Shown: positions 36,423 through 54,327 of the stretch, piece by piece
Layout: each line of letters begins with the position of its first letter
Position numbering within the stretch: position 1 is the stretch's first letter
DNA from: an uncultured Gammaproteobacteria bacterium
GTDB lineage: Bacteria > Patescibacteriota > Patescibacteriia > S139-126
Assembly: GCA_964493305.1 (NCBI GenBank)
Contig: CAZBLW010000001.1
Location: 113,484 to 177,483, forward strand
Direction: 5' to 3'
Length of the DNA stretch: 64,000 bases
Notes under the pieces: generated by a model
What the model saw: the letters and a program-made list of their open reading frames with translations, nothing else
What the model was told of the DNA's origin: nothing
Database searches by the model: none
Position numbers and translations under genes: made by a program

Positions 36423-36513
36423 GGAGAGGTCGCATAGTGGTCTAGTGCGGTTGCTTGGAGAGCAACTAACGGTTCATAGCCGTTCGAGGGTTCGAATCCC
36501 TCCCTCTCCGCCA
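36423..36513 (+). tRNA. tRNA-Ser (anticodon GGA)
   Basis: GGAGAGGTCGCATAGTGG..., anticodon loop TTGGAGA, long variable arm, T-arm GAGGGTTCGAATCCCTC, CCA. Confidence 0.85.
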
Positions 36514-36614: not shown

Positions 36615-36836
36615 ATGCAATCACATAATATGAAAGATGAGGCAGTAAAACTTGGAAAGAATCTTAAACGTATCCGTATCGAAAAAGGGATATCACAGGT
36701 TGATATAGCCCGATCTCTTAAAGTTAGTAGAGGTTTTATAAGTAATATAGAAAATGGTAAGACGAATCCTACGTTAGCAACCATTGCTAGAATAGCCAAA
36801 GCAGTGGGTGTATCAACCAATGAGCTTTTAAAATAA
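36615..36836 (+). CDS. XRE-family helix-turn-helix transcriptional regulator
   Basis: 73 aa; GISQVDIARSLKVSRGFISNIENGKTNP HTH_3 pattern. Confidence 0.75.
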   Translation: MQSHNMKDEAVKLGKNLKRIRIEKGISQVDIARSLKVSRGFISNIENGKTNPTLATIARIAKAVGVSTNELLK

Positions 36837-36839
36837 TCT

Positions 36840-38426
36840 ATGAATAAAAAAGATTCAAATTCAAACAGGACAAAAGAACAAGAACGTTCAGAGCTTCATC
36901 GTGCTATTTGGCAAATAGCTACAGATTTACGAGGAAGCGTAGACGGTTGGGATTTTAAACAGTACGTACTGGGTATGCTTTTTTATCGGTTTATTAGTGA
37001 AAATTTGACCAACTATATAAACGATGATGAGAGTCGATCAGGTAACAAGAATTTTGATTATGCCATGCTTTCAGATAAAGAAGCTGAGTTTGGTCGGGCT
37101 GATACAGTAAAAGAAAAAGGTTTTTATATTTTGCCAAGTGAGCTTTTTGTTAATGTTCGTAAAAAAGCTCGTAATGACGCAAACCTTAATGAGACGCTCG
37201 CGTCTGTTTTTAGAAATATTGAAAATTCGGCAAAGGGTGCTAGTAGTGAAGATGATTTGAAGGGCTTATTTGATGATGTTGATGTTAATTCCAATAAATT
37301 AGGAGGAACAGTAGAAAAAAGAAATCAAAAGCTTGTGAAGTTATTAGAAGCAGTTGGTGACCTTAAGCTTGGTAATTACTCTGATAATACAATAGATGCT
37401 TTCGGTGATGCCTATGAATTCTTAATGGCAATGTATGCTTCAAATGCTGGAAAGTCTGGCGGTGAATATTACACTCCGCAAGAAGTTAGTGAATTGCTAG
37501 CAGAAATTACGACAGTCGGTAAAAAAGAGGTAAATAAGGTTTATGATCCAGCCTGTGGTTCTGGTTCTTTACTTTTAAAATTTGCAAAAGTTTTAGGTAA
37601 AGAAAATGTACGTCTTGGATTTTTTGGTCAAGAAATTAACCTGACCACATATAACCTTTGCCGTATTAACATGTTTTTGCATGATATAAATTATAATCAT
37701 TTTGATATTGCTCATGGTGATACTCTTACCGATCCTAAACATTGGGACGATGAGCCATTTGATGCCATAGTGTCCAATCCGCCATATTCAATCAAATGGG
37801 ATGGTGATGCAAACCCTCTTTTGATTAATGACCCTCGTTTTTCGCCAGCTGGTGTATTGGCTCCAAAAAGTAAAGCCGATCTAGCTTTTACAATGCATAT
37901 GCTTTCATGGCTTTCCACCAGCGGTACGGCAGCGATTGTTGAATTTCCCGGGGTCCTGTATAGAGGTGGAGCTGAACAGAAGATTCGAAAATATCTTGTA
38001 GATAATAATTATATTGATACGGTTATTCAACTTCCGCCTGATTTATTTTTTGGGGTTACAATAGCTACATGTATCATTGTTTTAAAAAAGAGTAAGAAAG
38101 ATAATAAGGTATTGTTTATAGATGCTAGTAAAGAGTTTATTAGGGGTGGAAATAAAAACAAATTGAGCGATACAAACCGCACTAAGATTTTAGATACATT
38201 TAAAAATCGTAACGACATAGAATACTTTGCCAAACTAGTAGAAAACAAGACTGTGGCTGAGAATGATTATAATATTGCGGTATCAAGTTATGTTGATATG
38301 CAGGACATTAGAGAAAAGGTGAATATCAAAGAGTTAAATAAAAAAATTGCTGAAATAGTTTCAAAACAAAATGATTTACGTAAGTCTATTGATAAGATTG
38401 TTAATGATATTGAGGGATCTAAGTAA
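36840..38426 (+). CDS. hsdM: Type I restriction-modification system methyltransferase subunit
   Basis: 528 aa; N6-adenine MTase motifs (DPACGSGSLL motif I, NPPYS motif IV); HsdM N-terminal domain. Confidence 0.9.
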   Translation: MNKKDSNSNRTKEQERSELHRAIWQIATDLRGSVDGWDFKQYVLGMLFYRFISENLTNYINDDESRSGNKNFDYAMLSDKEAEFGRADTVKEKGFYILPSELFVNVRKKARNDANLNETLASVFRNIENSAKGASSEDDLKGLFDDVDVNSNKLGGTVEKRNQKLVKLLEAVGDLKLGNYSDNTIDAFGDAYEFLMAMYASNAGKSGGEYYTPQEVSELLAEITTVGKKEVNKVYDPACGSGSLLLKFAKVLGKENVRLGFFGQEINLTTYNLCRINMFLHDINYNHFDIAHGDTLTDPKHWDDEPFDAIVSNPPYSIKWDGDANPLLINDPRFSPAGVLAPKSKADLAFTMHMLSWLSTSGTAAIVEFPGVLYRGGAEQKIRKYLVDNNYIDTVIQLPPDLFFGVTIATCIIVLKKSKKDNKVLFIDASKEFIRGGNKNKLSDTNRTKILDTFKNRNDIEYFAKLVENKTVAENDYNIAVSSYVDMQDIREKVNIKELNKKIAEIVSKQNDLRKSIDKIVNDIEGSK

Positions 38427-38432
38427 GAATGT

Positions 38433-39890
38433 ATGTATATATCAAAAATTAAATTTCATAATTTTAAAGGATTCAAGGGGGATCACGAGCTTAATTTTGA
38501 TAAAGGTATAAATTTTTTTGTTGGTGACAATAATTGTGGTAAATCAACGGTTTTTGAAGCAATCGATTTTATTTGTGCAAAGAAGGAAAGAAATGAAGTT
38601 ATTACTAAAACGGAAATTGAAGGTGATGATTTTGTTTCAGTTGAGATTGAATTTAGGGGTGAGGATATTAAACCTCTTATTGCCACAGAGGCATTAAAGA
38701 AATATGAATCATCTATTATAGAAGCCGCTGACCAGACTATTTTACGGGTGATGCGATCCAGTGAAGAAACAGAAATTACGCAGGGTGGTAAAAAAAAGAA
38801 TCTTGACATTAAGAATGTTCGTGTTTTTAACCCAACTTCTAGCCAGTTTGAAAACCCTACAGGAATTGATAATACAATTACAGCATTATTTGATGCACAA
38901 TTTGTTTGGGCTGATACTAATCCTGGCGATATTTCAGATTTTTCAAAAACTAAAATATGCGGAAAAATTATAAATGTGATCACTCAGGATTTTGTTAACT
39001 CTCAAACTTGGAAAAAATTTAGGGATTCCCATAAAGAAACTTTTGGCGATGGAGCAAATAGTCTAGCCACCACACTTAAACCGATTGAAGAGAAATTAAA
39101 GACTATTTTAACAGAACAGTACGGGGATACTGAGGTTAGATTTAGTTTTTCTCTCCCAGAAATAGAGAGTTTTTTTAAAACCGGAAATATTGATTTGTCG
39201 GAAGATGGTATTGAGACGAAGAGCTCGGAAAAAGGTACGGGTATGCAAAGGGCATTGGCCCTAGCACTTATTCAAGTATATGCTGACATTTCATCATCTA
39301 ATGGGGAAGATATTTCAAAGCCAATTCTATTCTTTATTGATGAACCGGAGACTTTTTTACATCCAAGAGCACAAAATAAGCTTCTTGATGCACTAGAGAA
39401 AATATCGGATAAATCACAAATTTTTATTATCACTCATTCCCCATATTTGTTAAAAAAATATAAAAAAGAAACCCATTCAATGAATGTTTTTTCAAAAGAG
39501 GCAGGATTAAACAAGGCTGAAGAAGGTAAGGAGTTTGATTTATTTGGAACGTCGAGTCCTACATGGGGAGAAATTAACTATTATGCCTTTGGAGTTCTGT
39601 CTGTCGAATTTCATAACGAACTGTATGGTTTTATTCAAGCAAAGGCGATTCTGGAAGATGAAAAAAATTATTTTGAAGAAGAATTCGAAAAGTACTTAGT
39701 TAATAAAGGCATTGTGCAGGATCAGCCATATATCCGTCTGAAAAAAGATGGCACTACAGAAAACCAGACAAGAACTTTACCAACGAAAATTAGAAATATT
39801 ATTCACCATCCAGACAACACATACAATACAAAATATACTGACGAAGAATTAAAAAGCTCTATCGAGTCTCTAATACCGCTATTGAAATGA
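38433..39890 (+). CDS. ABC/AAA15-type ATPase with C-terminal HEPN-like R-N-x3-H motif; PrrC/RloC-like candidate, a restriction-linked ORF nested in the type I R-M operon
   Basis: Walker [10 protein letters not shown] (aa 31-39), Walker B/D-loop [13 protein letters not shown]-loop ITHSP. C-terminal ~150 aa end with [11 protein letters not shown] (R-N-I-I-H-H). Confidence 0.5.
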
Positions 39891-41086
39891 CTAAACATCA
39901 AAGTAAAATTGAAAAATTAATCAATCAGTTATGCCCACAAGGTGTGGAATTTAAAGAGTTGGGGCAAATTTTGGATTATGAACAGCCAACTAAATATATA
40001 GTTAATTCCACTCGGTATAATGATGATTATGAAATCCCTGTTTTAACTGCTGGTCAAAGTTTTATTTTAGGTTACACAGATGAAATTGAGGGAGTATATG
40101 AATCTGGTAAAAAAAATCCAGTAATTATTTTTGATGATTTTACAACATCATTTCATTGGGTTGATTTTAATTTTAAAGTAAAGTCATCAGCAATGAAAAT
40201 GTTGAGGCCACATGAAGATGTTAAAGTAGACTTTAAATTTGTATATTATGCCATGAAGTGCATTAATTATGTTCCGCAAGATCATGCACGTCATTGGATA
40301 TCAAAGTATTCAAAATTTAAGATTCCTTTTCCACCTATCACAATTCAACAGGAAATAGTTCGTGTGCTAGACTCTTTTACAGAGCTGGAAGCAGAGCTGG
40401 AAGCAGAGCTGGAAGCAGAGCTGGAAGCAAGAAAGAGGCAATATGAGTATTATCGAAATGAATTATTTATATTTGATCAGAGCGTGAAATTTAAACATAT
40501 CAAAGAACTTTCTTTAGAAACTTTTTGGATAATGCCAGCAACTCCAAATTTTACATCCGATGGTAATGTGCCATATATCACATCAAAAAATATAAGAAGT
40601 GGTAACATAGATTTTACGAACGTAAAGAAGATATCAAGACAATCTTTTTTAAATATATCTAAAAATCGACCAATAGTTCGAGATGATATTTTGATAAGTA
40701 TGATTGGTACTATAGGTGAAGTTGCACGTGTTAAAGATAGTGATTTGGAGTTTTATGGTCAAAATATGTATCTTGTAAGATTGAATCAGGAGAAGATAGA
40801 CGTAGGTTATTTTTTACACTTTTTTGACTCAGATAAAATGAAAAACTACTTTGGCTCTATAAAGAATAGGTCCAGTCAAGGTTATCTAAAGGCTGGTCAA
40901 GTAGAATCTATTAAAATTCCAGTACCAGTATTAAGTGAACAAAAAAGAATAGCGGCCATATTAGATAAATTCGATGACCTTGTTAATGATATTTCAATTG
41001 GATTGCCAGCTGAAATTAAAGCTAGAAAATTACAGTATGAGTATTACAGAAGTAAACTTTTAACTTTTGCAGAATATGCCAGTTAA
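39887..41086 (+). CDS. hsdS: Type I restriction-modification system specificity subunit
   Basis: 399 aa; two TRDs separated by a central conserved region (…[29 protein letters not shown]) and a C-terminal conserved region ([16 protein letters not shown]). Confidence 0.85.
40382..40429 (+). repeat. Perfect 4x tandem 12-bp repeat (gagctggaagca) encoding (ELEA)4 in the central conserved region of hsdS
   Basis: Directly visible tandem repeat; in-frame (12 nt). Confidence 0.9.
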
Positions 41087-44000
41087 TAAATACAATTTAG
41101 TTGCCGAAAATTCCCAAAGCACAGTAGTAGCGGAATATACACCAGACAAAAAGCGCTCTAAAAATTACCAAAGCGAGGCAGAATTAGAGAGTGCTTTTAT
41201 CGAGTTACTTAAAACGCAGGCCTATGATTATTTGACTATTACGTCTGAGGATGATCTGATATCAAATTTACGCAAGCAGTTGGAAAAACTTAATGGTTTT
41301 GAATTTAGTGATTCGGAATGGAGTCAGTTTTTTGAAAGTGAGATTGCTAATCCAAATCAGGGTATTGAAGAAAAGACAGAAACTATTCAAGAAGATTATA
41401 TTAAAAATTTAACCCGTGATGACGGCACGGTTAAAAATGTATATCTTTTGAAAAAAGATAATATACACGACAATAATTTACAGGTCATTAACCAATATGC
41501 AACTGAGAAGGGTCAACGAGCTAATCGCTATGATGTAACAGTTCTTGTTAATGGTTTACCACTAGTACACATTGAGCTTAAGCGTCGTGGTGTAGCTATA
41601 CAGGAGGCTTTCAATCAAATTAATCGTTACCAACGAGAGAGTTTTTGGGCTGCGTCTGGCCTTTTTGAATATGTACAGTTATTTGTCATTTCCAATGGCA
41701 CTCATACAAAATACTATAGCAACACTACTCGTTTAGAACATATCAAAGAATCAGTTGAAGGATCAGTCAAAAAGGGCAAAAAGACAAGTAATAGTTTTGA
41801 ATTTACAAGCTGGTGGGCGGATGCTACTAACCGTCCAATTATGGATTTAATGGACTTTGGTAAAACTTTTTTTGCCAAGCATGCTATTTTGAATATTTTG
41901 ACTCGCTATTGTGTATTTACAACAGATCGCTTGTTGCTTGTTATGCGACCCTACCAAATTGTTGCAACAGAAAGAATATTAAATAGGGTAGAAGTTAGCA
42001 CAAACTACAAAAAACTTGGCACTGTTGAGGCCGGTGGGTATGTGTGGCATACTACTGGATCTGGCAAAACGTTAACCAGTTTTAAAACAGCTCAGTTAAT
42101 TAGTAAATTGTCAGATGTTGAAAAAGTATTATTTATTGTCGATCGTAAGGATTTAGATTATCAGACAATGCGGGAATATGACAAGTTTGAAAAAGGGGCG
42201 GCCAATAGTAACACCAGTACGGCAATTTTAAAAAAACAAATTGAAAATCCTAATACTCGTATAATTATTACTACTATCCAAAAGTTGGATCGTTTTATCG
42301 CCCGTAACGGAGGCCATAATATTTTCAACGGGCATGTTGTTTTAATTTTTGATGAATGTCATCGTTCTCAATTTGGTGAGATGCACGCAGCCATTACAAA
42401 GTCATTTAAAAATTATCACATCTTTGGTTTTACGGGTACGCCGATTTTTGCAGTTAACGCTTCATCAAGCGGGCGACCAGATTTAAGGACTACCGAGCAA
42501 GCCTTTGGTGATAAACTACATACCTATACTATTGTTGATGCTATTGCTGATAAAAACGTTTTGCCGTTTAAGGTTGATTATGTTTCTACGGTGCGAGAAG
42601 CGGAAGACATCGAAGACAAAAAGGTTAGTGATATTGATCGTGAGGCGGTACTGTCTTCGCCTGAACGTTTGTCTAAAATTGTTGGTTACATTCGTGAACA
42701 TTTTGATCAAAAAACTAAACGTAACAGTTTTTATAAACTAAAAGATAGACGTCTAGCTGGCTTTAATTCCATTTTTGCTGTTTCTTCAATTGACGTTGCT
42801 AAAAAGTATTATGCGGAATTCAAAAAGCAATTGGCTGATTTGCCAAGTGATAAACAGCTTAAAGTTGCTTTGATTTACAGCTTTGGTGTAAATGACGAAG
42901 ACGCTGACGGCATGATTGATGAAAATTTAGAAGATACCAGCGGACTGGATAAAAGTTCACGTGACTTTTTAGATAGTGCTATTTCAGATTATAATTTAAT
43001 GTTTGGCACTTCTTATGACACTTCTTCTGATAAGTTTCAAAATTACTATAAAGATGTAAGTCAGCGGGTAAAAGATAGGGAAATTGATATTCTTATCGTG
43101 GTCAATATGTTTTTGACTGGTTTTGATGCAACAACGCTTAATACTCTTTGGGTAGATAAAAACTTGCGATTGCATGGACTATTGCAGGCTTATTCTCGTA
43201 CCAATAGAATTCTAAATAGCATAAAAACATTTGGTAATATTATTTGCTTCCGTAATTTAGAAAAAGCAACTAATGAATCAATCGCTCTTTTTGGCGACAA
43301 GGAAGCAAGCGGTATTGTTCTTTTGAAATCATACGAGGAATATTATCATGGTTATAAAGACGGTAAAAAAGAAGTACGTGGTTATGAGAGTTTGGTTAAT
43401 GAGCTGTTAGAAAAGTTTCCTGTCAGCGAACGAATCATGGGCGAACAAGATCAGAAAGATTTTATTAGGCTATATAGTGCTATTTTAAGAGTGCGTAATA
43501 TTCTAGTAACCTTTGATGAGTTTGCTGGCAACGAGATTTTAACTGAGCGTGATGTTCAGGATTACCATAGCATGTATATTGATTTGTATAATGAGTTTAA
43601 AAAAGCGGTTGAAAATGAAAAAGAAAATATCAACGAGGATTTAGTATTTGAAATGGAGCTTATTAAACAGATTGAGATCAATATTGACTATGTTTTGGGA
43701 TTGATCAAAAAATATCATGAAGATCATACTAAGAATCGAGAAATTCTATTAGATATAAATAAGGCGATTGATTCTAGTGTTGGGTTACGTAATAAGAAAG
43801 ATCTCATCAATAAATTTATTACCTCCCTTGACGTTCATTCGGTTGTTGATGATGATTGGAAGAAATTTGTTGAAAAGAAGAAGCTTGAAGAGCTTGATGA
43901 AATCATTGCTAAGGAAAATCTTGATCGAGACGCAACTTATAAATTTATAAAAAATGCATTTCGTGATGGAGGTATTGCAACCGCTGGTACGGCCATAACT

Positions 44001-44126
44001 AAAGTTTTACCACCTGTATCTCGTTTTTCTCCGACTGGTGAGCGTAGTAAAAAGCGTGATAGTGTTTTAGGTAAACTAACAATTTTTTTTGAAAGATTCT
44101 TTGATATTTCAGAAGGTAATTTTTAA
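41067..44126 (+). CDS. hsdR: Type I restriction enzyme endonuclease/helicase subunit
   Basis: 1019 aa; Walker [13 protein letters not shown]-box FDECHRS, SF2 helicase motifs; overlaps the hsdS stop. Confidence 0.9.
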
Positions 44127-44134
44127 TATAGTTG

Positions 44135-45463
44135 CTATAGAGATAGTATTTTATTTTTAAAGCTAATTATTTTATTTCTCAATAAAATTTCACCATTTAG
44201 ACAAGCAAGTAAATCTCGCTTCTCCTGATCCTCACCCTCTCTTAAAATAAATTTTGCATAGTTATTAATATCGACGTCATTCACGTCGATATTATCATTT
44301 TTACCCGTAACCATATTTTGAAACTTTTTAAATCTCCGTATATCTGATTTAATCTTGTTTTGCATCGGGGATTTATTGAAATCGAATTCATCCGTGAGCT
44401 TTTGTAGTTGTTTGATCAAATCAGTTTCATTAATATATCCGCTTTTGCAGTACTTGTCTTTGGCTTTGGTGCATCCGTAATATACATGCCGGTTATACTC
44501 ACCGTTTTTCAATTTCTTGAATTTCTCAGTGGCAGAGATGCCTGATCCGCATAAACCGCATTTCATTATCTTGGTAAAAGCAAACTCAATATTTTCTCTC
44601 CTCACCAGTTGCGAGTTTTTCATCTGTTCCTGAACTTGATCAAACAATTCCTTAGTAATAATAGGTTGGTGTTTCCCCTGATACCAATTGCCTGACCCTC
44701 TGGGGTACTCAAACGGCCCGTAATAGAACGTATTCTCCAATAAGCGGTAGATATTACCCAGGCTCAAATGTTTCTTGCCTAGGGCTGTTCTAAAGTTCAA
44801 TTCAAACCGCAGCCAGTGATAGAGTTTTCTGCCTGACCATTTTTCATAGGCGACTTTTTCAAACATCTGCTTAATAACTGGCCCCCTCTCAGGATCAATC
44901 AAGCATTCTCCCTTATGGTCGACTCTTTTCTCTTTTAGATACCCTGTGGGAGGGCAGGTCGGCCATAAGCCCATCTCACATCTCGTTCTCAAACCTCTTT
45001 TGACATTAATGCCTCGGTTATCATTCTCCAGCTTGGCCTGAGAACAAAGTATCATGAGCAAAAACTTTTCATTGGGTGAATTACTGAATGTTTGTCCGAA
45101 TGTTCTGATGCCTAAAAGTTTTTTCGCATCCATAAGATCCACGAGCGATCCTAAATCACCAGCATTTCTTGATAACCTGTCCGGTGCCCAGGTGAGAATG
45201 GCATTGAATTTATCTTCGCGAATATCACGCAGGATCTCCCTAAACACCGGGCGCTTGTCTGAATCCTTGGCTGATTTTGCTTCACGCCGTATATCTATGA
45301 TTTCAAGATTCTCTCGCTCCGCTATCTGGAGCATTTCTTTTACCTGCGAATCAATGGACAGCGCCTGCCGCTCGTCTGATTCAGTGCTTTTCCGGGCATA
45401 TAAACAATACCTCAGCTTATCTGCCACCTGTATGGGATCCTTTTGTTTGGTAGTAATCTCCAT
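44135..45463 (-). CDS. Serine recombinase (resolvase catalytic domain + recombinase domain + zinc ribbon; small member of the large-serine-recombinase type)
   Basis: N-terminal YARKSTESDERQALSIDSQ catalytic Ser/Arg motif; C-terminal Cys cluster CGLCGSG...YYGCTKAKDKYC. Confidence 0.8.
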   Translation of the reverse strand: MEITTKQKDPIQVADKLRYCLYARKSTESDERQALSIDSQVKEMLQIAERENLEIIDIRREAKSAKDSDKRPVFREILRDIREDKFNAILTWAPDRLSRNAGDLGSLVDLMDAKKLLGIRTFGQTFSNSPNEKFLLMILCSQAKLENDNRGINVKRGLRTRCEMGLWPTCPPTGYLKEKRVDHKGECLIDPERGPVIKQMFEKVAYEKWSGRKLYHWLRFELNFRTALGKKHLSLGNIYRLLENTFYYGPFEYPRGSGNWYQGKHQPIITKELFDQVQEQMKNSQLVRRENIEFAFTKIMKCGLCGSGISATEKFKKLKNGEYNRHVYYGCTKAKDKYCKSGYINETDLIKQLQKLTDEFDFNKSPMQNKIKSDIRRFKKFQNMVTGKNDNIDVNDVDINNYAKFILREGEDQEKRDLLACLNGEILLRNKIISFKNKILSL

Positions 45464-45563
45464 GCCCCCATTAATGACAGAACCACCAGATTTGCTAAGC
45501 CCATTGCTGTCGATAACTTGTTGGCAACTTTTCTCTAGTTTTTATTAAGGAATACTAACGTTT

Positions 45564-47027
45564 TTAAATAAAATATATCCTTGGTACACGAGGGGGCTTT
45601 TCAGAAACACTATGTACTAAGTTGGAAAATGCGTCGACTAAATCGTCGTGTTTTTCTACGCCAAAATGAACGATCTGCTGTATCAGTTGTTCGGCTCCTT
45701 TTCTTGGAAACAGTACTTGTCCTGATTTGATGAGGTTAGCGGTCAGCACTAGGCGACTTCTCTTATCTTGATAACCGGGCCGGGTGGTCATGACGTGCCA
45801 CAACCCCTCGCTTTTTAATTGTTGCGGTAGGGCTTTTTGATACGCAACATCTTCGATGATAAACGTCGGAGGCAGACCATCTCTTTCATAACTTTTTTCC
45901 AGTAGCTTACAAGTATCAACGGTTTCGGGGAATGTCATGCGCCTATTGATGATTTTTGGAAGAATATATACACGATAACTCGTTTCAGTTTCATATAATA
46001 ATCCCAGTACCATAGCGGTATAGTCGGCAAGATTACTTTTTGAAATAGCGGGGTCAATGCCAATCCTTACTTCCATATGTGAGGAATAACCACTCTTAAA
46101 TTTTATTGGCGCCGGTATTTCATCATAGAAATGAATCCATTCCGGATAGATAGCTTGATCTTCGTCTGGAATAATATTCAGCAAGAATTCGCGTTGCCAA
46201 GCGATATCATCGCCAACTTTTCTTTTTTCAGCTTCAATGTCCTCACTGGTTGGATATTTGCCGGGCCATAAACATTTCCCTTTATTATCGATCAGGGGGA
46301 AATAAAGAAAGTTACCGTCAATGTTGTTATGTTCAGATTCGTCTTTCAAGCGCATGAGGAGCGAATCCTCGTGCAAGAGATTGCCCACCACGATTAACCG
46401 TGTGTTTTTATCCCCGGCTGGAATAACCTCGCCCTTGAGCCATTGATACGTCTTATTTCTGCCTTCCCGTGTCTTGGTTGAGGTCATATCTTCCACGTCA
46501 TCGCAAATAATCAAATCCGGACGATGTTCATGATGCCGAAGCCCCCGGATGCTTTGCTCAGTGGATGCTACGGTAATGCGCGCATCGGTATTGGAAAATA
46601 CCAGGGAATGCGAGCCCCATTCGTCGTTATCTTCTTGAAACGGGCCAAGGTCTTTTTTTAACAAATCATTATCCTCAAGCTCCCGGCGTAAATTCATCAT
46701 GTGTTGCTTGGCCTGGGTTTGGGTCTGGCAAAAAATGACCACAAACTTTTTTTGTTGTTTGCCTAAGATTGCCCAGATCGGATAAGCCGTGGTGATAACA
46801 GTAGATTTTCCTGATCCGCGGAAGGCGACCACAAACAGATTTTTATGGTCATTTATTTCGAGGAGATGGATAATCTCTTTTTGAAAATCTGCCGTGGCAT
46901 ATTTGACGTAGTGGGCGTAGTAGAAGTGAAAGAAGTAAGAAAAACTTTCCTTAGTGATGGCTATTCGTACTTTCTTGTCTTTCGTCATCTGCTCCACCAG
47001 GTCCTGTGGAATTATTTCGGTTGTCAT
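45564..47027 (-). CDS. terL: Phage terminase large subunit
   Basis: 487 aa; Walker A AFRGSGKST in the N-terminal ATPase; C-terminal RNase-H-like nuclease region with acidic residues (IGIDPA...). Confidence 0.8.
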   Translation of the reverse strand: MTTEIIPQDLVEQMTKDKKVRIAITKESFSYFFHFYYAHYVKYATADFQKEIIHLLEINDHKNLFVVAFRGSGKSTVITTAYPIWAILGKQQKKFVVIFCQTQTQAKQHMMNLRRELEDNDLLKKDLGPFQEDNDEWGSHSLVFSNTDARITVASTEQSIRGLRHHEHRPDLIICDDVEDMTSTKTREGRNKTYQWLKGEVIPAGDKNTRLIVVGNLLHEDSLLMRLKDESEHNNIDGNFLYFPLIDNKGKCLWPGKYPTSEDIEAEKRKVGDDIAWQREFLLNIIPDEDQAIYPEWIHFYDEIPAPIKFKSGYSSHMEVRIGIDPAISKSNLADYTAMVLGLLYETETSYRVYILPKIINRRMTFPETVDTCKLLEKSYERDGLPPTFIIEDVAYQKALPQQLKSEGLWHVMTTRPGYQDKRSRLVLTANLIKSGQVLFPRKGAEQLIQQIVHFGVEKHDDLVDAFSNLVHSVSEKPPRVPRIYFI

Positions 47028-47421
47028 CTGGTTTAATGTTTAATGGTAAAATTTGAGCCAATTGCAAGGCCTTGTGTACAATTTCGGTTTGCGAGGGGGT
47101 TAATTCTCCGGTATCGTCGAATTTGGAAGTGACCTCGACCTTGTCTTTGAATTTTGGATTCCGGTGGCGGAGCCAAAAGCTGATGGCTGACCAGTTTTTC
47201 TCTTTGATGAGCGTGAGGAGTTGGCTCTCGCTCATGTCATTCACTAGCGCCTCACCCTCAGCTAAGGCCTCGTCCATATCCTGACTGAATGTTTTATCTT
47301 CTCGTTTCCAGCGATATACGCTGTTGCGGGAAATACCTGTTTTTTCGCAAGCAACCTGCACAATGGGTATTTTTCGCAGTTCATCGAGAAAACCGTTTTT
47401 TACCTTATTTTTCTTGGCCAT
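46951..47421 (-). CDS. HTH protein, terminase small subunit-like
   Basis: 156 aa; N-terminal HTH (VACEKTGISRNSVYRWKRED); located immediately upstream of terL, with its 3' end overlapping the terL 5' end by ~77 nt in another frame. Confidence 0.5.
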   Translation of the reverse strand: MAKKNKVKNGFLDELRKIPIVQVACEKTGISRNSVYRWKREDKTFSQDMDEALAEGEALVNDMSESQLLTLIKEKNWSAISFWLRHRNPKFKDKVEVTSKFDDTGELTPSQTEIVHKALQLAQILPLNIKPDDNRNNSTGPGGADDERQESTNSHH

Positions 47422-48685
47422 ATACTTTTGCTTTAATACCTGTTAACCGCTCGTACCTCTTTATCGCTAAATCGCAAAAAATCGGTTCAAGCTCCATGGC
47501 ATAGACCTTTCGTTTTAATTGTTCCCCGGCGATAAGCGTACTGGCTGACCCGGAAAATGAATCAAGAATAATATCACCAGGCTTACTGCAGCGCCGGATC
47601 GCTTTTTCGTGGAGTTTCGGCGGCTTGCTGGTGGCGTGTTCGTATTTTTTGCCAGCCAAACGCTTCACCAGCCACACGTCCAGTTCATCCAGGCTTTCTT
47701 CCAACAGGTTATTCCCTGTGGTTATTTCCTTATTTAAGATTTCATTGAGATTTTTGATGGAGGGCGCAATGTATGGTTTTCCTTTCACGCCGTACACGGC
47801 TGGCTCATAGCATTTGTTAAACGCGGTCTGGGGTGTTGGGTTTTGTGAGTTTTTAATCCACAGACAGACACGTTTGTTCGCAATGCCAAGCTCTCGATAC
47901 AGTTCTTGCATCAGGCCTATATATGTCTGGTCGCACCAGTAGAAGATGTGGCAATCCGGCCTTGCCACCGATACGGCGGCAATAAGGGTGTCTTTAATGA
48001 ATTGTTTATATTCCTCATATGATCGGTTATCATTCACCACTCCACCGTAGTCCTTTTTTCCTCCAATGCCCTTGGTGTAATTAAGATTCAAATTATATGG
48101 AGGATCACTATATATAACCGATGCCCGGTCGTTGCCAAAGAGCCGCTTGAGGTTTTTGGGATCGGTTGAACTACCGCAGAGCAGTCGATGTGGTCCTAGC
48201 ACGATTAAGTCACCCAATTTAGTTTTGGGAGTTTTAATTTTTTTGATCTCCTGTTCAATGTCGAAATCTTCGTCTTTCACCTCCAGCTCGTTATCCCACA
48301 GGTGTGAAAGGTCAATCTGATCAAATCCCACATCAAGCAATAGATCCAAGTCAAAAGATTTCAGTTTTTCAAAATCCCAGTCACCGCCCAGGGCGTTGCT
48401 GGCTATGAGGTATTGTTTAGCCTCTTTTTCTGTGAGTTTGCGACTAGGGATACGGACATCAATAACTTCTTCCCCTCTGCCCAGAAATTGTAAGGCCTTG
48501 ATCCGCTGATGCCCGGCTAATATTTTCCCGTTAATATCAATAGCGGGAATTTCAACCAGATTGTATCTGGTGAGACTTTTTTTTAGATCCGACATTTGTT
48601 TGTCGGTGATGGTGCGAGGGTTCACGTCTTGGGGGATAAGATCGTTTACTCGCTTTTGCACGGTGTGCCACGTCAGTTTTTTCAT
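47405..48685 (-). CDS. ParB-like nuclease domain / DNA N6-adenine or N4-cytosine methyltransferase fusion
   Basis: N-terminal ParB/Srx motif (AGHQRIKA); MTase motif IV SDPPY followed by motif I LDSFSGSAST (beta-class order). Confidence 0.8.
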   Translation of the reverse strand: MKKLTWHTVQKRVNDLIPQDVNPRTITDKQMSDLKKSLTRYNLVEIPAIDINGKILAGHQRIKALQFLGRGEEVIDVRIPSRKLTEKEAKQYLIASNALGGDWDFEKLKSFDLDLLLDVGFDQIDLSHLWDNELEVKDEDFDIEQEIKKIKTPKTKLGDLIVLGPHRLLCGSSTDPKNLKRLFGNDRASVIYSDPPYNLNLNYTKGIGGKKDYGGVVNDNRSYEEYKQFIKDTLIAAVSVARPDCHIFYWCDQTYIGLMQELYRELGIANKRVCLWIKNSQNPTPQTAFNKCYEPAVYGVKGKPYIAPSIKNLNEILNKEITTGNNLLEESLDELDVWLVKRLAGKKYEHATSKPPKLHEKAIRRCSKPGDIILDSFSGSASTLIAGEQLKRKVYAMELEPIFCDLAIKRYERLTGIKAKVYGQEK

Positions 48686-48780
48686 ACGATGTTATTAATT
48701 ATTAAAAACTAACTGAGTCGATTATAAAGAAAAAACCGAGGCGTTGTGCTTCGGTTAAAAATATTGTTTAAATGTATAAG

Positions 48781-49725
48781 CTATATTTCTCCTAGTCTTT
48801 TTTTAGTTCTCGTAATGATAGTTCGAATACCATTGGTGGTTAATTTCGGCCATTTCTTTCTCATTTTAGCGAGTATATTAATATCGGTGGCTGTAAAACC
48901 AGAAAGACCTAACTCTCTATTCGGAGTAAGCTTCTTTTTTAATTCTTTATAGAGGTTATATACCATAATATCCCTGTCAAAAGTTTTCCATTCTTTGCTC
49001 TTGCCGATGTAGTCCTTTAACCGTTTTTGTTCCTCCGCTATCTGACCCCAGTTTTCCATGATGTCTTCTTTTTTGGTATGGCCGAGGATTTGCACAAATA
49101 GTTCCATTTGTTCAGTTTTTTCTTTTCGTTTCCAAGCAACATAAAAGTGAGGGGTGCGGTATTCCCTTCTGCCAAAAAAAATATATAGTTCCAAAAAATC
49201 CCTAAACCCTCGATCATTGTAATCAATGCCGAAGTGATTGAGTATCTCGTTGTAGGTTTGCCCATATACGGGTGGCAAGAATTTTTCTCTGAATTCATCC
49301 AACGCATCATATTCTTCGCTGGATATACGTTTTTTTCCGCCGGTAATGCGGAGTTTATTTTGTATGTATTCATCACTTCGCTCCATTTCCGCAAAGCGGT
49401 TCCAGAAATGTTCGTTCCAGGTTTTATATTGTTTATATTTTTTAAACGGTTTTCTGGGCAAGGGGCAACCCACTTCGGCAAAACGTTTCTTGAGCCAATC
49501 GATTTTTTCCAAAAACCATTGGTCCCGGATCATAGCTTGGGCCTTATAGTAGTTCTGGTCGTATATTTTACGGCTTTGCTTATTTTTCTTTATTTTTGTG
49601 GATTTCATGTGGATATTTAGCAGGTTGACAGATGTGGACAGTTCTGTATAATTATATATACCATGAATAAAACGAAAAAGATAGACTTGGCGGGTTACGC
49701 CTATATCCGTAATCAGGTTATCCAT
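48781..49725 (-). CDS. Hypothetical protein (true start probably the internal Met near 49605)
   Basis: 314 aa ORF; the first ~40 codons overlap the divergent repressor gene and its promoter, so a later start is likely; no recognisable motifs. Confidence 0.4.
   Translation of the reverse strand: MDNLITDIGVTRQVYLFRFIHGIYNYTELSTSVNLLNIHMKSTKIKKNKQSRKIYDQNYYKAQAMIRDQWFLEKIDWLKKRFAEVGCPLPRKPFKKYKQYKTWNEHFWNRFAEMERSDEYIQNKLRITGGKKRISSEEYDALDEFREKFLPPVYGQTYNEILNHFGIDYNDRGFRDFLELYIFFGRREYRTPHFYVAWKRKEKTEQMELFVQILGHTKKEDIMENWGQIAEEQKRLKDYIGKSKEWKTFDRDIMVYNLYKELKKKLTPNRELGLSGFTATDINILAKMRKKWPKLTTNGIRTIITRTKKRLGEI
49625..49652 (+). promoter_or_regulatory. Near-consensus sigma-70 promoter giving an essentially leaderless transcript for the LexA-like repressor
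   Basis: TTGACA (49625-49630) - 16 nt - TATAAT (49647-49652); ATG at 49663. Two ATGTGGA(Y)A direct repeats (49607 and 49632) overlap the promoter. Confidence 0.55.
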
Positions 49726-50280
49726 ACCGGGGTAACGCCGTCTTTGCGGGAAATAGGACGGGTTGTGGGTTATAATTCCCCTCGCTCCGTGCAGTTAATG
49801 CTTGAGAGGTTGCAGAGGCAGGGCCTGCTTTCATATGAGGATGGAATAATTAAGCTGTCTCCTCGTAAAAGAAAAAGCCAGGCTGAGCGAACCGTATCTG
49901 TACCCCTGGTGGGATCGGTGGCGTGTGGCATGCCGTCGCTGGCAGAACAGGAACCCGAGGCTATGATAGAGGTGTCAACCAAGTTGGCTACGCCGGGACA
50001 CATATATTTTCTACTCCGTGCACGAGGTACGTCCATGAACAAATCGGGTATTAAGGATGGCAATTTAGTTTTAGTGAGACAACAGCCTACTGCCGAAAGA
50101 GGAGACAAGGTTGTTGCACTAATAAATGATGAGGCAACAATAAAATTATTTTATCCTGAAAAAGATATGGTTGTCCTGAAACCTGATTCGACCGACAAGG
50201 AGCACAAACCAATTATTCTATCTGATGAATTTTTTATACAAGGGGTTGCGGTTGCATCCTTCCCCTCTGATATATACTAA
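49663..50280 (+). CDS. LexA-like / phage CI-like S24 peptidase repressor
   Basis: 205 aa; N-terminal LexA-type winged HTH (TPSLREIGRVVGYNSPRSVQLMLERLQRQGLL); cleavage-site-like VACG; Ser (RARGTSM) and Lys (EATIKL) catalytic dyad. Confidence 0.75.
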   Translation: MNKTKKIDLAGYAYIRNQVIHTGVTPSLREIGRVVGYNSPRSVQLMLERLQRQGLLSYEDGIIKLSPRKRKSQAERTVSVPLVGSVACGMPSLAEQEPEAMIEVSTKLATPGHIYFLLRARGTSMNKSGIKDGNLVLVRQQPTAERGDKVVALINDEATIKLFYPEKDMVVLKPDSTDKEHKPIILSDEFFIQGVAVASFPSDIY

Positions 50281-50298
50281 TCATTAAAATCAATCTTT

Positions 50299-50445
50299 AT
50301 GAGTAAAGGATCAAAAACCTTCCCCCTTGGCAGGGATTCCAAGACTGGCGAATTTATTCCGGTCAAGGAAGCCAGGCAGCACCCCAATACCACTACTGTG
50401 GAACGTGTGCCGAAGCGTGGCTACGGCGATACTAAGAAAAAATAA
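50299..50445 (+). CDS. Unlisted 48-aa small ORF (hypothetical)
   Basis: ATG..TAA ORF below the 60-aa track threshold, filling the gap between the repressor and GIY-YIG genes; no strong SD, so tentative. Confidence 0.25.
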   Translation: MSKGSKTFPLGRDSKTGEFIPVKEARQHPNTTTVERVPKRGYGDTKKK

Positions 50446-50457
50446 CCATCTTAAAGT

Positions 50458-50811
50458 ATGCAATTAAAATGGACAGAGCGGATTCCGCTCACAAAAACCG
50501 GTGTTGATAAGATAAATTCAATTGCCGGCGTGTACCGTTTGATTTATAAAGAATCAGATGATAAGTATTACGTGTATTATGTCGGGCAAACGGACGATTT
50601 AAATGACAGGCTTTCCCAACATCTCTCGGACAACGAGGAAAACGAATGTTGCCAAAAACATCTCGATAAGTATACCTGCTATTTTCGAGCGGCTGCTATT
50701 TCAACGCAAGCCAATCGGGATGGTGCCGAAGTAGCACTCTATAATCAATATAAACCTACATGTGTTGAAAGAGTTCCTGATGTTGATCCAATTGAAATTA
50801 ATTTTGATTAA
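50458..50811 (+). CDS. GIY-YIG domain protein
   Basis: 117 aa; GVYRLIYK...YYVYYVGQTDDLNDRLSQH matches the GIY-X10-YVG...R...H pattern. Confidence 0.65.
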   Translation: MQLKWTERIPLTKTGVDKINSIAGVYRLIYKESDDKYYVYYVGQTDDLNDRLSQHLSDNEENECCQKHLDKYTCYFRAAAISTQANRDGAEVALYNQYKPTCVERVPDVDPIEINFD

Positions 50812-50813
50812 TT

Positions 50814-51125
50814 ATGTCAGAAACCGCATCGCATAAAAACACAAAAACCCGCGGATTGAAAGGCTCAAAAACTGAGATCAAAATCCCCGGGAACCGTCGA
50901 CTTGATGCAGGTACATCAAATCGTGCTCGAGAAGTTGAAAGAAGTGGCAATAAAAAATCGATTGCGAAAGCCGTAAGGCGCCTTAACAGTCAAACTAATA
51001 AGAAAAAGGAATTATTGGTGCCGACGCAAAATCTTGATATGGCAAAATCGGTTGCAAAAAAAGTTGCTAAAGGAAAAATATTGATCCAGAATCTATCTAG
51101 GACTCAGAGACGGTTTGTTGAATAA
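50814..51125 (+). CDS. Hypothetical highly basic protein
   Basis: 103 aa, Lys/Arg-rich, no motifs recognised. Confidence 0.35.
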   Translation: MSETASHKNTKTRGLKGSKTEIKIPGNRRLDAGTSNRAREVERSGNKKSIAKAVRRLNSQTNKKKELLVPTQNLDMAKSVAKKVAKGKILIQNLSRTQRRFVE

Positions 51126-51143
51126 TTTGGTTTGTAAATATTT

Positions 51144-51527
51144 ATGTCTACAACAACTCAGTTTATAACTGCTGATTTTTTGGATGGCGTCATCAAATCC
51201 ACTCTAGCGATTCTTTGGAATATATTTAAAAGTATCTGGCCTTCCATAAAATATTTCCTAATAGGTTTTACAATATATATTGCTGGTGGTGTGCTGTTGC
51301 AAATAATTATGTTGAAAGGTAGTGGCAATCGTCACAAGTTGTCAGCACATTTTAATAAAATAGTTGGCGCTCTCACATATGCCGTCTTTTTTATTTTATA
51401 TCTGTTTATCGCTTATAAAATATGGGGGCCTCAGGTAATTGATGATTTATGGTTTACTCTAATTGGAACGCTCTCTTTTATTTCAACGTGGCTATTTTTA
51501 AGACTCATAGGTTTTTGGTACTATTAG
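51144..51527 (+). CDS. Hypothetical membrane protein (3 TM helices)
   Basis: 127 aa, hydrophobic segments. Confidence 0.4.
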   Translation: MSTTTQFITADFLDGVIKSTLAILWNIFKSIWPSIKYFLIGFTIYIAGGVLLQIIMLKGSGNRHKLSAHFNKIVGALTYAVFFILYLFIAYKIWGPQVIDDLWFTLIGTLSFISTWLFLRLIGFWYY

Positions 51528-51543
51528 TTTATAGGTTATTTAT

Positions 51544-52218
51544 ATGGAGCTATCAGATGAATTAATTCAAAAATTCAAAGATTTAACCGAAAAAAAGCAG
51601 GGTGAAAAAATTTCTTGGGAAGAAGCAAAAGAAGGTGTGAGTAGTTTTTTGCGTCTGATGGAGCTTTTCTATAAACAGGCGACAATTGACCATAAACGTC
51701 AGTTGAAACTAAAGGAACATCCAAAGGGTTTTCATATTGAAGGTCAAGGATATACCTGCGCTATTTGTTATGGCTCCATATCCGATGAGGAAACGTGGTA
51801 TGACAAATGGGGTATCAAATGCCTCTTATGCCAAAAGGCTATAGATAAAAAGATAATCCCGGGCTCAGTAGCTAAAAATGATAACACTTGGTATTCGGAA
51901 CATGATCTCCATACTAGGTTCAATATCGACAAGCGTGCAATGAAAGAATTTGTTAAAGCAGGTGTTTTAAAACCACGTATCGTACCTAACGCTTCCGGTC
52001 GCCCACATGTGTATATTTTTATGATAAAGGATAATAAAGACACGCTCCCACCAAAACACTTAACCGAGTCGGAACATGTGAGTTATAAAGGTGAAGAAAA
52101 AGGCAGAATTCATATTGAGCCGTGGTACAGATTTGTTGATCCGTACAAACATTTAGAGGTGTATAAAATCATGAATTATTTAAATGTTGTAAATAAAAAT
52201 GAAACTCATATCAAATAG
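51544..52218 (+). CDS. Hypothetical protein with CxxC...CxxC zinc-finger motif
   Basis: 224 aa; CAICYG...CLLCQ. Confidence 0.4.
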   Translation: MELSDELIQKFKDLTEKKQGEKISWEEAKEGVSSFLRLMELFYKQATIDHKRQLKLKEHPKGFHIEGQGYTCAICYGSISDEETWYDKWGIKCLLCQKAIDKKIIPGSVAKNDNTWYSEHDLHTRFNIDKRAMKEFVKAGVLKPRIVPNASGRPHVYIFMIKDNKDTLPPKHLTESEHVSYKGEEKGRIHIEPWYRFVDPYKHLEVYKIMNYLNVVNKNETHIK

Positions 52219-53701
52219 AAGATGGAATTTAGATAGTGAAAAAGCCAGTCAAATAAAAAATTGGCTAATTGAGCATGGGGGCACGGCAGACGAAAAAGTT
52301 GGCGAGTATGAAAATTGGCGAGTTAGATATTCTGATGCTGTTTTTACTTACTATACAAAAGGGACTCTTTATGTCACTGACTCTAATGATGGTGCCCTTA
52401 ACGAAGCACACGAATTGGTAGATTCACTTGTCGGATCAAAATTTGTTGAACCTTCAAAAGAAGTTTTAATAGGTTTTGATGAAACAGGTAAAGGTGAGGT
52501 ACTCGGCCATGTGGTATTGGTTGGCGTATTAATTCCTGCTAATCTATATCATGAAATTGAGAAGGTAATAGGTGTCGCGGATACAAAAGTGAGCCATACT
52601 GTGGAGTATTGGGATGATATATTTAACAAAATAGATTTTTTTAGGTCAAAAGGCCTTCAATTTATTATTGAAAAAATTCCCCCATGGCATTTTGATCGTT
52701 ACAATATCAATAAGCTACTAGATATTACTTATCAACGAATTTTGCTGTCATATAGTACAAAATCTAACTTGTCAAAGACTAGGGTTGTTTTTGATGATTA
52801 CGGAATAGGATATAGTCTTAAGAGATATTTAAATGCTATATCTCAGGGAGGAGCAGAGATTATTAAAACAACAAAAGCGGATGATAAATATCTCGAATCA
52901 AGAGTAGCTTCGCTTATTGCAAAACGAGAGCAACAAAAAATAATGGCCGCTATATCCAGTAATCCAGAATTTAAAATAGAAACTCAAAGTATTGGTAGTG
53001 GTAATGCTGGTGACAAAAATACTGTTGGTTGGCTAAAATCCTGGTATGAGACTAATCATGATTGGCCGTGGTTTGTGAAACAATCATTTAAAACAATTGG
53101 AGATATAGAAGGACGTGTAAATAAAATACAAAAGGCCATACCTCCTATCAATGAACACTTATTATCAAAAGAATTCAGGGAAAAATTTGAAAGTGGTGAA
53201 TTAAACATACAATCTTTATCGGTTGTTTGCCCTTGCGGCGCAACTGCAAAAGCAATTAAATTAATTTATAAGGATAAAATTGTTACGGCTATCTGTGCAA
53301 GTTGTAAGAATAAATTACAAGACGCCGCACTGACTTTACGATATTATTGTGGACGCATTATTCCTGATACAAGTGTGATTTCAAGCGGTTTATTATCAAT
53401 GGATTTAGATTCCTCAAAATTTTTTGAAAACTTTACTTTTTTAATACATCCAACAGTTCGGCGTGAAAGTGATACCAAGGGGGGTAAAAGAGAATTTGAG
53501 CGTCTTGCTAATTTTGCGGCCATTGGGAGGATTAAATTGGAAGAGACGGGGTCAATTCTGGATCCAAAAAAATTGGATAACATATCACGTGACGAGTCAA
53601 TACTTATTGGTGCTATTGATTCTAAAGCTATTTTATTGACTAGGGATAATCAAATGAAAGGTATAGCTCAAGCAAAAAACCTTTTTGTAATAGAAGGCTA
53701 A
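52199..53701 (+). CDS. Multidomain protein with an RNase HII-like nuclease core and a C-terminal zinc ribbon
   Basis: Residues ~85-210: IGFDETGKGEVLGHVVLVGV (cf. RNase HII G-x-D-E-x-G-R-G-P-x-x-G-x-V-V), ADTKVS (cf. DSKKLS), VVFDDYG (cf. LIDGN). Later CPCG...CASC. Confidence 0.45.
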   Translation: MKLISNRRWNLDSEKASQIKNWLIEHGGTADEKVGEYENWRVRYSDAVFTYYTKGTLYVTDSNDGALNEAHELVDSLVGSKFVEPSKEVLIGFDETGKGEVLGHVVLVGVLIPANLYHEIEKVIGVADTKVSHTVEYWDDIFNKIDFFRSKGLQFIIEKIPPWHFDRYNINKLLDITYQRILLSYSTKSNLSKTRVVFDDYGIGYSLKRYLNAISQGGAEIIKTTKADDKYLESRVASLIAKREQQKIMAAISSNPEFKIETQSIGSGNAGDKNTVGWLKSWYETNHDWPWFVKQSFKTIGDIEGRVNKIQKAIPPINEHLLSKEFREKFESGELNIQSLSVVCPCGATAKAIKLIYKDKIVTAICASCKNKLQDAALTLRYYCGRIIPDTSVISSGLLSMDLDSSKFFENFTFLIHPTVRRESDTKGGKREFERLANFAAIGRIKLEETGSILDPKKLDNISRDESILIGAIDSKAILLTRDNQMKGIAQAKNLFVIEG

Positions 53702-54037: not shown

Positions 54038-54056
54038 AATCCCTCCCTCTCCGCCA
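54038..54056 (+). repeat. 19-nt direct repeat of the tRNA-Ser 3' end (attR-like) with ~45 nt of tRNA-flank-like sequence after it
   Basis: aatccctccctctccgcca is identical to the last 19 nt of both tRNA-Ser genes. The following ttaaacttcgctaacg...ttaattttttatacatatatttaa is ~80% identical to the 54328-54375 flank. Confidence 0.8.
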
Positions 54057-54140: not shown

Positions 54141-54229
<89 letters not shown>

Positions 54230-54315: not shown

Positions 54316-54327
54316 CCCTCTCCGCCA
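54316..54327 (+). repeat. Third partial copy (12 nt) of the tRNA-Ser 3' end plus a flank copy
   Basis: ccctctccgcca followed by tccaacttagctaacgctttacttaattttttatacatacatttaaac. Confidence 0.7.

Follow-up and report, generated by a model that had tools for sequence, protein, structure and literature searches.

The window analysed here is a stretch of 64,000 nucleotides of DNA from a Patescibacteria (CPR) bacterium, and it carries a Type I restriction-modification (R-M) operon with the gene order HTH - hsdM - ATPase - hsdS - hsdR, made up of intact genes with overlapping junctions. The GroEL of this organism has its named relatives, at ~70% identity, among Buchananbacteria and Patescibacteria. 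The genes of the operon and the parts of hsdS are as follows.

36615-36836, forward strand: 73-aa helix-turn-helix (HTH) protein, 5′ of hsdM (Pfam HTH_3, 4.8e-17; PADLOC Control_protein, 1.8e-14)
36840-38426, forward strand: hsdM, N6-adenine methyltransferase subunit (Pfam N6_Mtase, 7.8e-117; HsdM_N, 3.1e-20)
38433-39890, forward strand: AAA_15 / OLD-like ATPase of 485 aa, between hsdM and hsdS (Pfam AAA_15, 5.5e-31)
39887-41086, forward strand: hsdS, specificity subunit of 399 aa, family IC Type I R-M (Pfam, PDB, PADLOC)
39887-40336, forward strand: N-terminal region and target-recognition domain 1 (TRD1) of HsdS, about residues 1-150 (E. coli relative, AlphaFold2)
40337-40465, forward strand: central conserved region of HsdS, residues 151-193 (AlphaFold2, 7bst alignment)
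40380-40429, forward strand: perfect tandem repeat, period 12, 4.2 copies (sequence and Tandem Repeats Finder)
40466-40930, forward strand: target-recognition domain 2 (TRD2) of HsdS, about residues 194-348 (Pfam, E. coli relative, AlphaFold2)
40931-41059, forward strand: distal conserved region of HsdS, helices 349-367 and 372-391 (AlphaFold2, linker comparison)
41076-44126, forward strand: hsdR, family IC restriction/translocase subunit (Pfam EcoR124_C, T1R_D3-like, SWI2_SNF2, HSDR_N)

The 399-aa product was assigned to HsdS, as the original prediction had proposed, on the basis of Pfam Methylase_S matches in two stretches (2.8e-34), the EcoR124 HsdS as the best solved relative (PDB 7bst, E=1.6e-76, residues 7-395) and a PADLOC Specificity_I match (3.9e-108). 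With two Methylase_S stretches, an EcoR124-like fold, the operon partners and a 12-bp repeat all present, the protein is classed, by its sequence features, as a family IC HsdS. An exact-sequence look-up of this protein found no record, and its closest full-length relative in a protein search for near-identical alleles has 61% identity. The TRD1 region is 53% identical to that of an E. coli EcoR124-like HsdS. A prediction of the half-sites from the TRDs of the E. coli relatives was dropped, as 53-63% identity is too low to transfer specificity.

Among the operon partners, HsdR carries the EcoR124_C domain (2.1e-66), a marker of family IC, and the T1R_D3-like domain (2.6e-59), with SWI2_SNF2 and HSDR_N also present; its gene, from the ATG read in the sequence, shares 11 nt with the 3′ end of hsdS, and the exact HsdR product is already on record. 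The ATPase gene is also an operon member, its stop overlapping the start of hsdS. The best PADLOC match of the ATPase is Old (1.1e-51, for the ATPase part only, residues 1-357), with further matches to AriA, GajA and mad3; no Toprim nuclease domain was detected in the 485 aa, and the last ~130 residues are without a domain match. The 73-aa HTH gene is separated by 3 nt from hsdM, and its product is a candidate controller-like regulator of the operon. Controller proteins are typical of Type II R-M systems, and such a gene heading a Type I operon is maybe worth attention.

The hsd operon lies inside a ~17.6-kb insertion adjoining tRNA-Ser. A tRNA-Ser(gga) gene is found at 36423-36513, and 19 nt of its 3′ end recur at 54038-54056, while tRNA-Ser(tga) is found at 54141-54228 and a further 12-nt copy at 54316-54327. 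A related genome (GroEL 94% identical; L219) lacks the island and has the two tRNA-Ser genes in the reverse order, separated by 255 nt. The right part of the island (44135-53701), with a GC content of up to 0.40-0.45 against ~0.35 elsewhere, resembles a prophage or satellite remnant and contains the following genes.

44135-45463, reverse strand: large serine recombinase
45564-47027, reverse strand: terminase-like ATPase
47405-48685, reverse strand: N6/N4 DNA methylase
49663-50280, forward strand: LexA/S24 repressor
52199-53701, forward strand: 500-aa protein with an RNase HII domain

The large serine recombinase beside the operon looks like the integrase of the island. On searching the window with HsdS by tblastn, only the self-match was obtained, so the window holds neither a further hsdS nor a fragment of one, and it also has no convincing inverted repeats involving hsdS; a shufflon or a second hsdS copy was rejected on these grounds.

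Direct reading of the window sequence gives four perfect tandem units of GAGCTGGAAGCA at 40382-40429 on the forward strand, where the letters are aca-(gagctggaagca)x4-aga and the units stand in the context GACTCTTTTACA (GAGCTGGAAGCA)x4 AGAAAGAGG. Tandem Repeats Finder reports the run as 40380-40429 (period 12, 4.2 copies, 100% matches, score 100), which is the top-scoring array of the 64-kb window, and no second copy of the exact 12-mer exists elsewhere in the window. Given the first unit, 36 bases are fixed by the four perfect copies, so a chance origin is excluded. The 12-bp unit is in frame with the open reading frame at 39887-41086 (forward strand) and codes for residues 166-181, (ELEA)4, which amounts to 3.75 LEAE repeats in the published register, LEAE being ELEA in the other register. 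No open reading frame of at least 60 aa lies on the opposite strand at the repeat.

Perfect tandem repeats are a classic spot for assembly errors, and the run could in principle be a low-complexity stretch that was wrongly assembled, with a false copy number. By exact look-ups of the HsdM, ATPase and HsdR products, we located the same locus in the public Logan short-read assemblies SRR9016293 and SRR9016294, which are independent of each other and come from the same organism; their contigs are identical to the window over the stretches compared. The Logan assemblies, made with k=31, do not cross the tract; in both samples one contig stops at the last 31-mer, and the next starts at the first, that includes some unique flank. 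A period-12 run must reach 43 nt before any of its 31-mers recurs, so the Logan samples carry at least four copies or a mixture, and the contigs bound the copy number from below only. The shared breakpoints also imply that the repeat is not an artefact of the window's own assembly. Besides these breaks in two independent samples, an artefact has against it that the 50-nt run is shorter than the read length, that the frame is intact and the protein can be aligned over its full length with the EcoR124 HsdS, and that the linker length of the window allele is common to ~45% of the alleles surveyed below; we find it hardly credible. The tandem repeat is real, and the claim of a perfect fourfold in-frame 12-bp repeat at this position is confirmed by the sequence, by Tandem Repeats Finder and by the Logan breakpoints.

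For the place of this repeat in the protein we used an AlphaFold2 model (52 homologues as input; mean pLDDT 89.4), which has two globular domains, a central helix and distal helices at residues 349-391. The central region is modelled as one unbroken 43-residue helix (151-193) with the repeat (166-181) lying mid-helix, and the distal helices cover the same 43-residue span. As seen by homology and in the model, the distal helices are the antiparallel partner of the central helix. The alignment with 7bst has a single indel in this region, where the E. coli chain lacks four residues against one ELEA unit. The placement of the repeat in the coiled-coil central region between the two TRDs, which had been proposed from the sequence, is thus upheld by the 7bst alignment, in which it falls on TAEL, and by the model.

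We measured the linkers from LD-x-F to A/x-R-K and found that the central and distal linkers of the window HsdS are both of 16 aa (LDKF to ARK). In the 120 best homologues, every clean pattern match has a distal linker of 16 aa, and the central linker is mostly of 12 aa, with a minority of 16 aa and one case of 8 aa. The 7bst chain (TALTAELTAELN, two TAEL) has a central linker of 12 aa, and three TAEL correspond to a 16-aa central linker, the same as in the window allele. The systems with three TAEL (EcoR124II, EcoDXXI and EcoPrrI) have N7 sites, and three TAEL are described as an apparent optimum (PMC3874165). Four ELEA have the length of three TAEL, since degenerate units flank the TAEL tract. 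The window repeat is thus in no unusually expanded state and equals in length the three TAEL of EcoR124II, a common symmetric state. From this comparison of lengths the recognition site of the window system is predicted to be half-site-N7-half-site, with three units predicted to give N6 and five units probably giving N8.

The precedent invoked in the original prediction, the 12-bp TAEL repeat of EcoR124I and EcoR124II, is as stated there, an increase from two to three copies by unequal crossing-over having changed the spacer from N6 to N7 (PMC3874165). Tetra-amino-acid repeats (TAEL, LEAT, SEAL, TSEL) are described as a type IC hallmark that sets the spacer length in a passage of PMC10030836 citing Adamczyk-Poplawska 2003. 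In NgoAV, one versus two LEAT repeats lead to N6 versus N7 methylation among natural strains, as seen by PacBio for GACN6TGC and GACN7TGC (PMC6789123). A 12-base LEAE repeat, the same amino-acid repeat as here, is known in the XfaII hsdS of Xylella, where its copy number is reported to range between 0.75 and 3.75 within one allele and to differ between strains, with 11.75 copies in an outlier strain (bioRxiv 10.1101/2022.09.01.506293).

The window system is like EcoR124I/II (and EcoDXXI and EcoPrrI) in fold and domain order, in the EcoR124_C domain of HsdR, in having a 12-bp in-frame repeat of four residues at the same place of the central helix, and in the 16-aa distal linker; its central linker has the length of that of EcoR124II (three TAEL, N7). 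It differs in the repeat itself, which is LEAE/ELEA instead of TAEL and has four units identical in DNA, whereas the TAEL tract of EcoR124 has degenerate flanks; in its TRDs, only 53-63% identical to E. coli relatives; in the OLD-like ATPase between hsdM and hsdS; and in its Patescibacteria (CPR) host, the EcoR124 family being on an enterobacterial plasmid. XfaII is alike in amino-acid repeat, unit length and position, the window allele corresponding to 3.75 of its repeats, but belongs to a different organism, has different TRDs and has two frameshifting poly-C tracts in hsdS, none of which are seen in the window hsdS. NgoAV, whose HsdS is likewise of type IC, shares a central-region tetra-amino-acid repeat, of a different sequence, and has a poly-G tract that truncates HsdS, whereas the window allele is without a homopolymer switch.

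To look at copy number in nature, we searched for the exact two-unit 24-mer, so that the survey is ascertained on the exact 12-mer. The 24-mer was found in 67 species-representative genomes, spread over Patescibacteria, Actinomycetes, Proteobacteria, Bacteroidota, Firmicutes, Chlamydiales and others, and in at least 120 metagenome contigs and 2 viral contigs, and in nearly all cases it stands in the hsdS context LD-x-FT...R-x-x-QY. After merging near-duplicates, the matches listed amount to ~157 distinct hsdS alleles, and on dividing these by unit number, 78 have three units and 71 have four, the remaining ones having two (2 alleles), five (4), six (1) and ten (1). Copy numbers in short-read assemblies may be wrong for long tracts, as for the ten-unit allele (L019; Actinomycetes MAG JAKAZZ010000021.1, ~1029-1136, reverse strand), in which 9 perfect units and 1 synonymous unit of the same 12-mer make up a 121-nt periodic run and a 40-aa ELEA tract, far above the usual 3-4 units and with a short-read copy number that is uncertain. 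This outlier is a parallel to the Hib4 allele of XfaII with its 11.75 repeats. A viral contig (L203; IMGVR_UViG_3300044678_002246, reverse-complement 5494-5733) carries two arrays, one of 12 and one of 7 identical GAACTGGAAGCA units coding for ELEA repeats, outside the hsdS context, with flanks ...EAEADA / ELDAELEAEL..., that is, a different repeat protein with nearly the same unit.

Two allele pairs differ in unit number on a conserved background. In the first (metagenome contigs L078 and L092), four versus three units lie between flanks without a single mismatch (547 nt to the left and 1,248 nt to the right, 1,795 nt in all), and in the second (L105 and L116), four versus three units have 400-nt flanks that are 98-99.5% identical. 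Natural alleles differing in unit number on a conserved background thus exist in the family, and with this very 12-mer. For the window allele itself, no copy-number variant was found by exact protein look-up or by the protein search (best 61% identity), and the locus-specific 36-nt pattern (last unit and right flank) gave 0 matches in metagenome contigs. Judging by the first pair and by the literature on LEAE and LEAT, gain and loss of units, as had been proposed for this locus, does occur in nature in tracts of this 12-mer.

A codon-free search of viral contigs, (GAR YTN GAR GCN)x3, yielded 20 hsdS tracts. The units within each of these tracts are identical or differ in the last unit only, yet six different unit sequences are found between genes. 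Such identity within a gene together with synonymous difference between genes is a signature of concerted evolution, by slippage or by unequal exchange. Eleven further comparisons concern the domains on the two sides of the tract: in 11 allele pairs the TRD1-side flank is at least 96% identical and TRD2 is unrelated, and the unit number differs in most of them. In one group of metagenome contigs (L093, L165, L177 and L185), the 300-nt TRD1-side flank is 100% identical, the unit numbers are 5, 4, 3 and 3, and the TRD2-side flanks are unrelated in the scored pairs (~40% identity). This suggests recombination in or near the tract, and the group looks like a natural case of reassorted TRDs, the breakpoints lying at the repeat or close to it.

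The repeat had also been put forward as a phase-variation switch, and in its strongest form this would be a programmed, reversible switch of high frequency, with three-, four- and five-unit subpopulations in every culture that would bring about different methylomes and states of gene expression, i.e. a phasevarion. The perfect four-unit repeat, the homogenised units within genes and the three-versus-four polymorphism between otherwise identical contigs are all in line with it, as is the mixture that the Logan breakpoints would also fit, and Atack et al. (PMC7383803) raised the idea for tracts adjoining the TAEL repeat, stating that in-frame tracts of this region merit study. As an on/off switch, the proposal does not hold, since 12 nt is a multiple of 3, every change keeps the frame and the tract cannot turn the gene on or off. 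On/off frameshifting by a simple-sequence repeat, one hallmark of phasevarions, is thus absent with this 12-nt unit, and another, shufflon-type switching through extra hsdS copies or through inverted repeats and a recombinase, was not found within the window. Slippage at a 12-nt unit present in four copies is expected to be far rarer than at the mono- to penta-nucleotide tracts of known phasevarions. Moreover, of the 26 close allele pairs (flanks >90% identical on both sides) 24 have the same unit number and 2 differ, so the change is not very fast, and a single four-copy allele fully explains the Logan breaks. We therefore regard a programmed switch as quite improbable.

The opposite explanation is that of a static linker, in which the units are identical owing to a recent transfer of hsdS and the tract is unchanging in the lineage, with no diversifying role. 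The ~17.6-kb tRNA-Ser-associated insertion that holds the operon is absent from the related genome, the break pattern is the same in the two samples, and four units are the symmetric, 'optimal' length (PMC3874165), all of which are in keeping with such a reading. Composition analysis points the same way, as the repeat unit has 58% GC against 30% GC for the hsdS gene and contains the host-rare codons CTG and GAG, CTG accounting for 7.4% of the Leu codons in the window's chromosomal genes and for 0 of 25 in the rest of hsdS. A static tract is nevertheless at odds with the family-wide pattern of turnover (identity within genes, synonymous differences between genes, 2 to 10 units) and with the three-versus-four difference on an otherwise identical background, and we consider it unlikely.

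The composition of the unit is of interest beyond this locus. Among the 157 alleles, the GC content of the flanks runs from 22% to 59%, and Leu is encoded by CTG or CTA in 19 of the 20 tracts from the codon-unbiased search, and by TTA or TTG in none. The simplest reading is a horizontal spread of family IC hsdS modules together with their central region. A bolder reading would make the 12-mer a pan-bacterial DNA recombination joint, at which a TRD swap and a spacer reset occur in one event, giving a population that mixes N6, N7 and N8. It is suggested because the identical 12-mer occurs in >150 alleles whose flanks span this range of GC, is made of host-rare codons here, and is found in alleles that have an identical TRD1 with different TRD2s and unit numbers. 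Such a role at the DNA level is possible, and we hold the full scenario to be rather doubtful; if true, the joint would let distantly related bacteria, many of them CPR/Patescibacteria, exchange recognition domains.

On weighing this evidence, we consider it highly probable that the repeat is an LEAE-type tract of a family IC HsdS, acting as a spacer in the central helix, subject to in-frame turnover of units and serving as a specificity-diversifying element. The repeat forms the middle of the central alpha-helix, paired antiparallel with the distal helix, and by homology and the model the paired helices fix the distance and twist between the two TRDs. How many 4-residue units there are would then set the length of the non-specific spacer, as we infer from EcoR124I/II, EcoDXXI and NgoAV, and with four units the central linker matches the distal one (16 aa), as in EcoR124II, EcoDXXI and EcoPrrI. 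As the units are identical in DNA, whole units may be gained or lost in frame, by replication slippage or by unequal crossing-over. Instability driven by a hairpin was rejected, the single-stranded DNA having no special hairpin potential and folding no better than shuffles (z = -0.05). In the family, the comparative data show that unit turnover is faster than point mutation, and the tract would diversify specificity on population and evolutionary timescales, the target being altered and the gene not switched on or off. The reading first given to this locus is right as to position (7bst, AlphaFold2 model) and mechanism (PMC3874165), both of which are already described for family IC; phase variation stays a candidate role, and four copies are the ordinary symmetric state.

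As this mechanism was already established for family IC in the 1980s and the LEAE repeat is known in Xylella, the window case, a further family IC HsdS repeat in a CPR bacterium, is an added example and adds no new principle. The survey may be of modest use for R-M annotation, showing that tracts of three and four units dominate, that the units are homogenised and that a clean three-versus-four polymorphism exists. Unit number may be read as a predictor of spacer length, and perfect tracts should be treated as unstable. The tract of the window allele is probably changeable. If it varies here, a single slippage in frame would give both restriction and genome-wide methylation a new target, for example N6 or N8 in place of N7, which would be a cheap way of diversifying phage defence for a small-genome Patescibacteria population.
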